Shown: piece by piece, positions 18,740-20,111 of the stretch | Numbering within the stretch: the stretch's first letter is position 1 | Layout of the letters: every line of letters begins with the position of its first letter | From: Dictyostelium discoideum | Taxonomy: Eukaryota | Assembly: GCA_000004695.1 (NCBI GenBank) | Contig: CM000151.3 | Span: 5,664,001 to 5,728,000 of the forward strand | Reading direction: 5' to 3' | DNA length: 64,000 bases | Translations under genes and position numbers: made by a program | The notes under the pieces: model-generated | Seen by the model: only the letters and a program-made list of their open reading frames with translations | Databases searched by the model: none | What the model was told of the DNA's origin: nothing

Positions 18740-19693
18740 GAATTAAAAATTGAAAATGGATGGAAAAAATTATATATTGAATTAGGTTCAATTAAATTAT
18801 ATGGTACATATGATTTAATAGTTAAGGGTATGGAGTCATCGACATGTGATAGTCCAAGTCAAACAATTGAAAATACCTTAAGTAACGGACACGCATTCTG
18901 GAGTTCCAAAGGATCATTGACAAGTCAAGGTAACGAATATTTAATATACAAATTGGAACAACCAATTTGTATTGTGTCATCGGTGGTGTTAAGTGCATAT
19001 CGTGCTTTGTTTCAGTCTGGGTTCCCAACTTATTCACCAAAAGGTGTTATTATAAGTGTTGGCTTCTCAATGGACCAATATCATTACAAGTCTGAATTAT
19101 TCCCATGTGAACAAACTGATTCACCACAAACTTTCAAATTGGAGCCTTCATTAGTCCTAGGTGGGTACATTAGGTTAGATCTAATTGGTAAATATCAAAC
19201 TCAGTCAAGTGATAGACAGTATTATCATGCAATTAATCAAATTCAAGTAGAGGGTGTACCAATTGGTTCATTAGAAAGTAAACCAAATCTATCATTATCA
19301 ATGCTACAATTTTATTCAAAATTTAAATCACTTTCAACTTTAATTCATTATAATAATAATAATATTAATCATCCACCAAATATTGATAATTCAATTTTGA
19401 CAACCACTACTACCACCACAACTACCACTACTACGAGTACTAGTACTAGTACTACAGGTAAAGATGAATTTACATATAAAGAAATTTTATCAAAACTTCG
19501 TAGTTATATGGCACCTAAATTGGATAAAGCACGTATAAAGAAACAGAATATTTATAATGTTATAAGTGATATTGTTGAAGGTCGTTTTGAACAAGCTATT
19601 GATACAATTTTTAAGAATGATTTAAGAAGTAAGAAAATATTTAATATTTGTGTTCAATCAAGTAATGATAATGTAATTAATAAATATTTTTGA
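17724..19693 (+). CDS. F-box domain protein. Exons 17724..18261 and 18420..19693.
   Basis: It has an F-box motif LPYEVLCKILSFLDVNTLISTSLVSNLFNKI. The donor is ATT T|GTAATG at 18262 and the acceptor is tatttttAG at 18419. The phase-1 junction gives TGG (Trp) and restores the long frame (...GKPKCKTFNIEDSEYMLKKATIYTSSP...). The intron contains an (ATT)n tract. The protein has acidic/E-rich and poly-T/S/P tracts. I could not classify the C-terminal 400 aa from sequence alone. Confidence 0.65.
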
Positions 19694-20111
19694 AAGTTTA
19701 TTAGTTAGTGGTAAAAGATTCTCAACTGATGAAACTTTGTTTTTGGCAAATCAAGCTTGTTTAGATGGAAATATCACCATTTTCACTAGACTACTACTAA
19801 CAAGTAGAATATCACCTTCACCTGATTTAGGTGATTTAATGCTATCAAATGGTTATGCATTGATTGCAGCTGAAATATTTAGTCAATGTCAAATTCTAGA
19901 TAGAGCAATTCAATGTCTTTTCATTGCTGGTTGTCATGAAGAAGCTTTATTGTATACTAGAAACTATACAAATGATAATCCATTAGATATAGTTTATCTT
20001 ATAAAATTATTTAGACAATATTCCTTATATCAAGGTTGTCATTTTACAATTATATTTTTAGAATTTTATAATTCAATTAGAAATGAATTAGAAAATAGAA
20101 GAAGAGGAAGA

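Follow-up and report, generated by a model that had tools for sequence, protein, structure and literature searches.

Programmed +1 frameshifting at antizyme- and RF2-type sites, homopolymer-length errors of the Sanger era and strain-specific frameshift alleles are the closest described counterparts of a one-nucleotide frame break found in an F-box gene of Dictyostelium discoideum AX4. With the antizyme/RF2-type sites the locus shares formal anatomy only, namely a slippery P-site codon, an in-frame UGA and a long +1 open reading frame (ORF); it differs from them in being unconserved within the species, in showing no stimulatory structure, in belonging to an unrelated protein family and in having orthologues with a plain ORF. 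The Sanger-era errors are matched in that an extra base lies in a mononucleotide run and its deletion restores a conserved ORF, and in that the AX4 record has further singletons that no related genome shares, whereas the run here is short (5 T) and no notorious trouble spot. Strain-specific frameshift alleles also present a frame broken relative to orthologues and a sister laboratory strain at a slippage-prone run; the present case differs in consisting of a single lesion, known from the record alone, to which mutation rates assign low prior odds. The gene product itself shares both domains of F-box proteins (SCF substrate receptors) with a clathrin-heavy-chain-linker-like domain, a likeness read here from sequence that bears on the identity of the gene and is separate from the frame question.

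The comparisons presented below show that the site is neither a recoding signal, an overlapping gene nor a short intron, but a discrepancy of a single base that splits an ordinary conserved gene. The extra base most probably arose as a base-calling or assembly error in the Sanger-era AX4 reference.

Structure of the gene and of the two overlapping frames

Coordinates are positions in the window, which is the whole analysed stretch of 64,000 nt (D. discoideum, CM000151.3, 5,664,001-5,728,000, forward strand). The strain of the window is the AX4 reference, in its chromosome 2 record, and an exact look-up found the 336-aa ORF at 10643-11653 on the minus strand to be identical to DDB_G0275553. The features of the locus are collected in Table 1.

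Table 1. Features of the F-box gene and of the frame break, in window coordinates
Feature	Position	Strand	Basis and remarks
Exon 1	17724..18261	+	ATG at 17724; from the ORF list; spliced model free of stops
Intron 1	18262..18419	+	158 nt, GTAATG...TTTTTAG, mostly (ATT)32; the only real intron of the gene
Exon 2, frame-0 part	18420..19690	+	Ends ...AAT AAA TAT TTT (N K Y F); homology to orthologues runs through KYF
T-run	19687..19691	+	5 T in the window, one above every other genome examined
Apparent TGA stop	19691..19693	+	Arises only from the extra T; other genomes have GAA (Glu) in phase
Exon 2 remainder, +1 frame	19692..20456	+	Starts GAA AGT TTA TTA (E S L L); true stop TAA at 20454-20456
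Clathrin-heavy-chain-linker-like helical domain	19571..19919	+	Match of the family profile; straddles the T-run
Candidate 76-nt GT..AG interval	19629..19704	+	Enumerated; rejected as a real intron

The locus holds a single ordinary gene of two exons (17724-18261 joined to 18420-20456), which lies between vatE and the glutaredoxin-like gene and encodes an F-box protein of about 857 aa. Removal of intron 1 leaves a continuous frame with TGG (Trp) at the junction. The F-box domain begins at about residue 140, and the spliced model matches the 857-aa product of the assembly GCA_054883475.1, where the gene span minus the coding sequence is exactly 158 nt, equal to intron 1. Intron 1 has the same length in AX4 and in GCA_054883475.1; in three wild isolates its length is 124, 183 and 152 nt.

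Nucleotides 19685-19696 read TATTTTTGAAAG, which gives the codons TAT TTT TGA AAG, and frame 0 of exon 2 closes with V I N K Y F before the apparent stop. The +1 frame has a TAA at 19674-19676 and is then open from 19677 to the TAA of Table 1, over 260 codons. Both the stop of the F-box frame and the extent of the open +1 frame (19677-20456), as described in the sequence-only reading of the locus, were recovered when the sequence was re-read. An open frame of 260 codons has a chance of about 2e-12 at the base composition of the window, and since the product also has clear homologues, the downstream ORF is taken as real coding sequence. The earlier description further proposed that a slip of one nucleotide joins the two frames, and this holds: dropping one T from 19687-19691 fuses ...NKYF onto ESLLVSGKRFSTDETLFLANQ.... 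The junction peptide of the joined protein is ...NKYFESLLVSGK....

The remainder of exon 2 includes a poly-Asn tract (20112-20198), which is 29 residues long in AX4 and in GCA_054883475.1 and 17, 8 and 4 residues long in the isolates. The repeats of intron 1 and of this tract evolve fast, and the adjoining coding sequence is constrained.

In the joined protein, residues 140-184 matched the Pfam families F-box (PF00646; 39.5 bits, cut-off 20.5) and F-box-like (PF12937; 39.1 bits, cut-off 24.3), which places the protein among the F-box proteins. A profile of the family alignment A2, compared with the PDB, found residues 372-492 of the clathrin heavy chain (E = 2.4e-18). This alignment is unbroken across the junction KYF|ESLL, where the family motif ..Y[YF]..L.. 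stands opposite clathrin QYFGILL, and distant members of the family match Pfam Clathrin_H_link, P0010 above and P0008 below the threshold. The protein comprises an F-box, a central domain that is conserved and a helical domain resembling the clathrin heavy chain linker, and the extra T sits within a single conserved folded domain, away from gene and domain boundaries. The region of clear homology to the clathrin heavy chain linker lies in the C-terminal half, at window 19571-19919 and in the matching part of P0001-P0016. Pfam gives the F-box alone for the Dictyostelium protein, so that the combination of F-box and clathrin linker may be unannotated.

The junction in related genomes and in homologous proteins

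The locus was compared with D. purpureum, with GCA_054883475.1, with the wild D. discoideum isolates L007 (GCA_054859355.1) and L008 (GCA_054859385.1), and with the D. cf. discoideum isolate L009 (GCA_054859235.1). GCA_054883475.1 was located by exact look-up of the neighbouring glutaredoxin-like gene and shows zero substitutions against window 628-16400. It is probably AX2-214, judging from its near-identity to the window, the consecutive WGS accession prefixes and the work of Holland et al. (2025, PMC12745789), and is called the AX2-like assembly here. The AX2-214 genome was obtained with Nanopore plus Illumina reads, and AX4 and AX2 were reported to be 99.5% identical over the 104-kb tgrBC locus, with the coding regions of tgrB and tgrC unchanged (Holland et al., 2025, PMC12745789).

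The AX2-like assembly has four T at the site (AATAAATATTTTGAAAG, against AATAAATATTTTTGAAAG in the window), and its F-box gene is called as a protein of 857 aa. Removing intron 1 from that gene yields 857 aa identical to the window product with one T removed. Over 12.3 kb the two sequences differ at 25 places; the fifth T is the sole difference within the gene, and the remaining ones are intergenic, in AT-rich DNA and for the most part within long stretches of A or T. The T-run reads TATTTTGAAAG in the AX2-like assembly and in L009, and TATTTCGAAAG in L007 and L008; the window alone has five T. The codons are TAT TTT GAA in L009 and TAT TTC GAA in L007 and L008, a synonymous change that abolishes the T-run. 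Each of the three isolates has one intron in the gene and encodes ...NKYFESLLVSGKRF....

The syntenic locus of D. purpureum covers the site with a single unbroken exon of 529 codons, 150 nt there corresponding to 151 in the window, and its protein (P0001, 809 aa) aligns at 100% query coverage. The homologues from D. purpureum, Polysphondylium violaceum and a metagenome have exactly the length of the join with one T deleted. A HMMER search of 1.84 billion representatives returned six more homologues that span the site, and the joined product aligns with nine homologues across the junction without a gap. At least 90% of the homologue sequences keep the Tyr of KYF.

The differences among the isolates reveal which frame is under selection on either side of the run. 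Between 19560 and 19690, upstream, all are synonymous in frame 0. Downstream, scored in the +1 frame, the ratios of synonymous to nonsynonymous codons are 10:2, 10:2 and 16:3, and when they are read in frame 0 instead, the ratios become 0:12, 0:12 and 0:20. Purifying selection thus bears on frame 0 before the run and on the +1 frame after it. The fifth T is private to the AX4 record, and it is the uninterrupted frame that is conserved and under selection. Within the gene, the window does not differ further from the AX2-like assembly, either beyond the shift or before it; there is no second disabling change and no sign of relaxed constraint.

Several searches returned no entry for the protein. 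Homology searches with the junction segment and the central domain gave no D. discoideum entry, in an index that also missed the known D. purpureum orthologue. Exact protein look-ups of the 603-, 857- and 832-aa models, of 11 other intron variants and of edge-truncated products conjectured for Logan contigs found none; an 850-aa control from a wild isolate, although a called gene in the contig index, was equally absent, so that these absences carry no information on the reference annotation or on support from reads. Exact contig look-ups of the 409-aa and 239-aa ORFs of the window gave no match, and none of the four long ORFs used as anchors in the right half of the window was on record; these are probably exons of spliced genes. 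The paper of Bloomfield et al. (2015) contains no data specific to this locus.

Explanations of the fifth T

In the AX4 record, the TTTT that spans the Phe codon and the next Glu codon (TAT TTT GAA) is written as five T; on the preferred reading, the fifth T creates an artefactual TGA and shifts the last 254 codons to the +1 frame, and no special decoding mechanism is at work. The sequence-only reading had listed a sequencing indel beside programmed +1 frameshifting of the antizyme kind and had proposed a comparison with orthologues. In that comparison D. purpureum, the three wild isolates and the near-identical laboratory-strain assembly all have a continuous ORF, and because orthologues carry one continuous ORF, the indel is supported and the antizyme-like reading is refuted.

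Programmed frameshifting would have the P-site tRNA-Phe slip from 19688-19690 to 19689-19691 at a slow UGA (UUU-UGA-A), so that the mRNA with five T yields full-length protein, as at antizyme or RF2 sites. The site UAU UUU UGA A is indeed formally slippery, with perfect +1 re-pairing and an in-frame UGA followed by a 254-codon ORF, and UGA is uncommon as an ORF terminator in the window (TGA ends 2 of 19 long ORFs and TAA 14). However, an evolved recoding site should be conserved, and the one at 19687-19691 is not: no other genome that was examined shows the two-frame layout, not even a near-identical strain of D. discoideum, two wild isolates have no T-run at all (TTC), and the protein has no relationship to antizyme or to release factors. 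A search for a stimulatory structure at 19685-19800 found none that is significant (minimum free energy -21.6 kcal/mol, z = -1.17, 30 of 200 shuffled sequences folding at least as well), and a full-text literature search turned up no paper that connects Dictyostelium with ribosomal frameshifting and antizyme. As an evolved mechanism, programmed +1 frameshifting was rejected on the comparative data, and we consider it extremely improbable. Equally slight is the chance that AX4 truly has five T and makes some full-length protein through unprogrammed +1 slippage of tRNA-Phe at UUU-UGA.

An intron was the first idea considered. The statement that no intron of plausible size connects the two frames proved formally wrong, since the interval at 19629-19704 (GTAAGA...TTATTAG) has 76 nt, a length of the form 3k+1, although it is not the native structure. 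Spliced out, it joins the frames into an 832-aa protein (...FKNDLR-I-SGKRF...) without a stop; it combines a donor that is good by Dictyostelium standards (GTAAGA) with a TAG acceptor and a GC content of 15.8% (TTTATTAG at its end), and a gene predictor given the sequence with five T would probably pick it. Its removal would nevertheless delete 25 residues that are kept at equal length in nine homologues, that include the conserved Tyr and that belong to the domain aligned continuously with clathrin. Within the interval the isolates show only changes that are synonymous in frame 0, L009 has TGG in place of the acceptor TAG, and in the genomes with four T the interval measures 75 nt and is in frame. 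D. purpureum has no intron at the site, the gene calls of four assemblies splice intron 1 only, and frame 0 is open through the interval, whereas the real intron 1 has stops in two of the three frames. The intron was therefore discarded on the orthologue alignments, the synonymous variation and the unconserved acceptor, and we regard it as highly improbable.

A real frameshift of the AX4 lineage deserves more attention, although we rate it as rather unlikely. It would be a recent slippage insertion from four to five T, fixed in the AX3/AX4 laboratory lineage as a strain-specific loss-of-function allele or nascent pseudogene, which would yield a truncated F-box protein of 603 aa lacking most of the clathrin-linker-like domain, or an mRNA that is degraded. 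The extra T lies in a homopolymer, on which slippage usually acts, and indels in D. discoideum favour A:T runs (PMC7466956). AX4 and AX2 were derived independently from DdB/NC4, which allows for a change confined to one lineage (PMC4374526), and AX4 carries private changes, the chromosome 2 duplication among them (PMC12745789). Relative to functional orthologues the T does disrupt the frame, and the sequence downstream is free of further disabling changes, as expected of a very young lesion. A pseudogene or inactivating mutation had been suggested in the sequence-only reading; the degenerative changes that could have accompanied it were not found.

The rates of change in the species and the other peculiarities of the AX4 record weigh on the side of error. 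The substitution rate of D. discoideum is 2.9e-11 per site per generation (PMC3466296), and the indel rate is 4.9e-11, deletions being 4.5 times more frequent than insertions (PMC7466956), which sets an insertion rate of the order of 1e-11 per site per generation against a discrepancy of about 1e-4 per bp between the reference and real AX4 DNA (PMC3466296); any given insertion is thus less likely to be real than to be such a discrepancy, by orders of magnitude. In the same study, AX4-derived lines were compared with the reference, and 1,916 of the 1,917 candidate substitutions were common to the lines and represent reference errors or stock differences (PMC3466296). Where the wild isolates allow a discrepancy between AX4 and the AX2-like assembly to be polarised, AX4 is the odd one out in six of six cases and the AX2-like assembly in none. 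The six AX4 singletons are T>G at 16534, an extra C near 16625, the extra T at 19687, T>A at 20576, C>T at 20592 and A>C at 20618, which amounts to about 3e-4 AX4-private discrepancies per bp over 21 kb. With measured rates so low, real mutation would be expected to produce much less than one AX4-only difference in 21 kb. The density found fits the published level of reference discrepancy and is far above the mutation rate, and an error in the record is favoured for this reason.

The five singletons other than the T do not have a mutagen spectrum, and the AX2-like assembly has no singleton in the same 21 kb; the pattern is typical of record error and not of biology. It is an excess of private differences in the AX4 record relative to both a sister strain and outgroups. 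The T itself is a single-base difference from a near-identical, independent assembly, and its removal restores a conserved ORF.

Against an error in the record stands the site itself, which is coding sequence of ordinary complexity and, with its run of five T, no classic hard spot for Sanger sequencing. The history of the strain also has to be weighed. AX4 descends from AX3, which was isolated after nitrosoguanidine mutagenesis, so that some AX4-only differences could be real. Nitrosoguanidine would be expected to leave G:C to A:T changes, and the spectrum of the AX4 singletons is unlike this pattern. On balance, an error in the reference is our preferred explanation of the fifth T, and all readings other than this one and a real mutation of the AX4 lineage are together left with a very small share of the probability.

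Neighbouring observations and meaning for the AX4 gene

Further differences were noted around the locus. The AX4-only differences at 16534, at about 16617-16625 and at 20576, 20592 and 20618 are intergenic and are probably further errors of the reference. Four differences between the window and the AX2-like assembly fall within 54 nt beside a long poly-A run, and three of them can be polarised. At about 22975 the window lacks 496 nt of AT-rich, poly-A-flanked DNA that is present in the AX2-like assembly (L002 8016-8511); the absence is either a collapse or gap of the reference at a homopolymer or a real strain indel. At about 5422, in the large upstream gene of about 2,343 aa, the window has one more unit of an in-frame AAC codon repeat than the AX2-like assembly does.

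Between the PRKCSH-like and TIG-domain genes of the three isolates, a small gene of 111-123 aa is called (L007 8247-8684, L008 8172-8760 and L009 8123-8578, corresponding to about window 12,000-13,500). It matches Pfam ASTER in two isolates and is absent from the gene list of the AX2-like assembly (L003). The short Logan contigs L004-L006 from public runs (SRR26869257, SRR26869267 and SRR26869258) cover window 10447-11733; they match the window exactly or are one base off in a run of 16 or 17 T, and they end within low-complexity runs.

The main value of the finding lies in curation. The AX4 reference very probably needs one T removed, and any model there that is divided or cut short, labelled as a pseudogene or carried across the site by the spurious 76-nt intron should give way to the two-exon model of 857 aa. 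Neither an error in the record nor a real mutation would inform the biology of recoding. Were the unprogrammed slippage described above to occur, it would represent a newly arisen shifty stop and the partial rescue of a fresh frameshift in the most widely used Dictyostelium laboratory strain. If the fifth T is real in AX4, the reference strain has a private null or truncated allele of a conserved F-box gene, an allele that is absent from AX2 and the wild strains, and comparisons of AX4 and AX2 phenotypes must allow for that allele.
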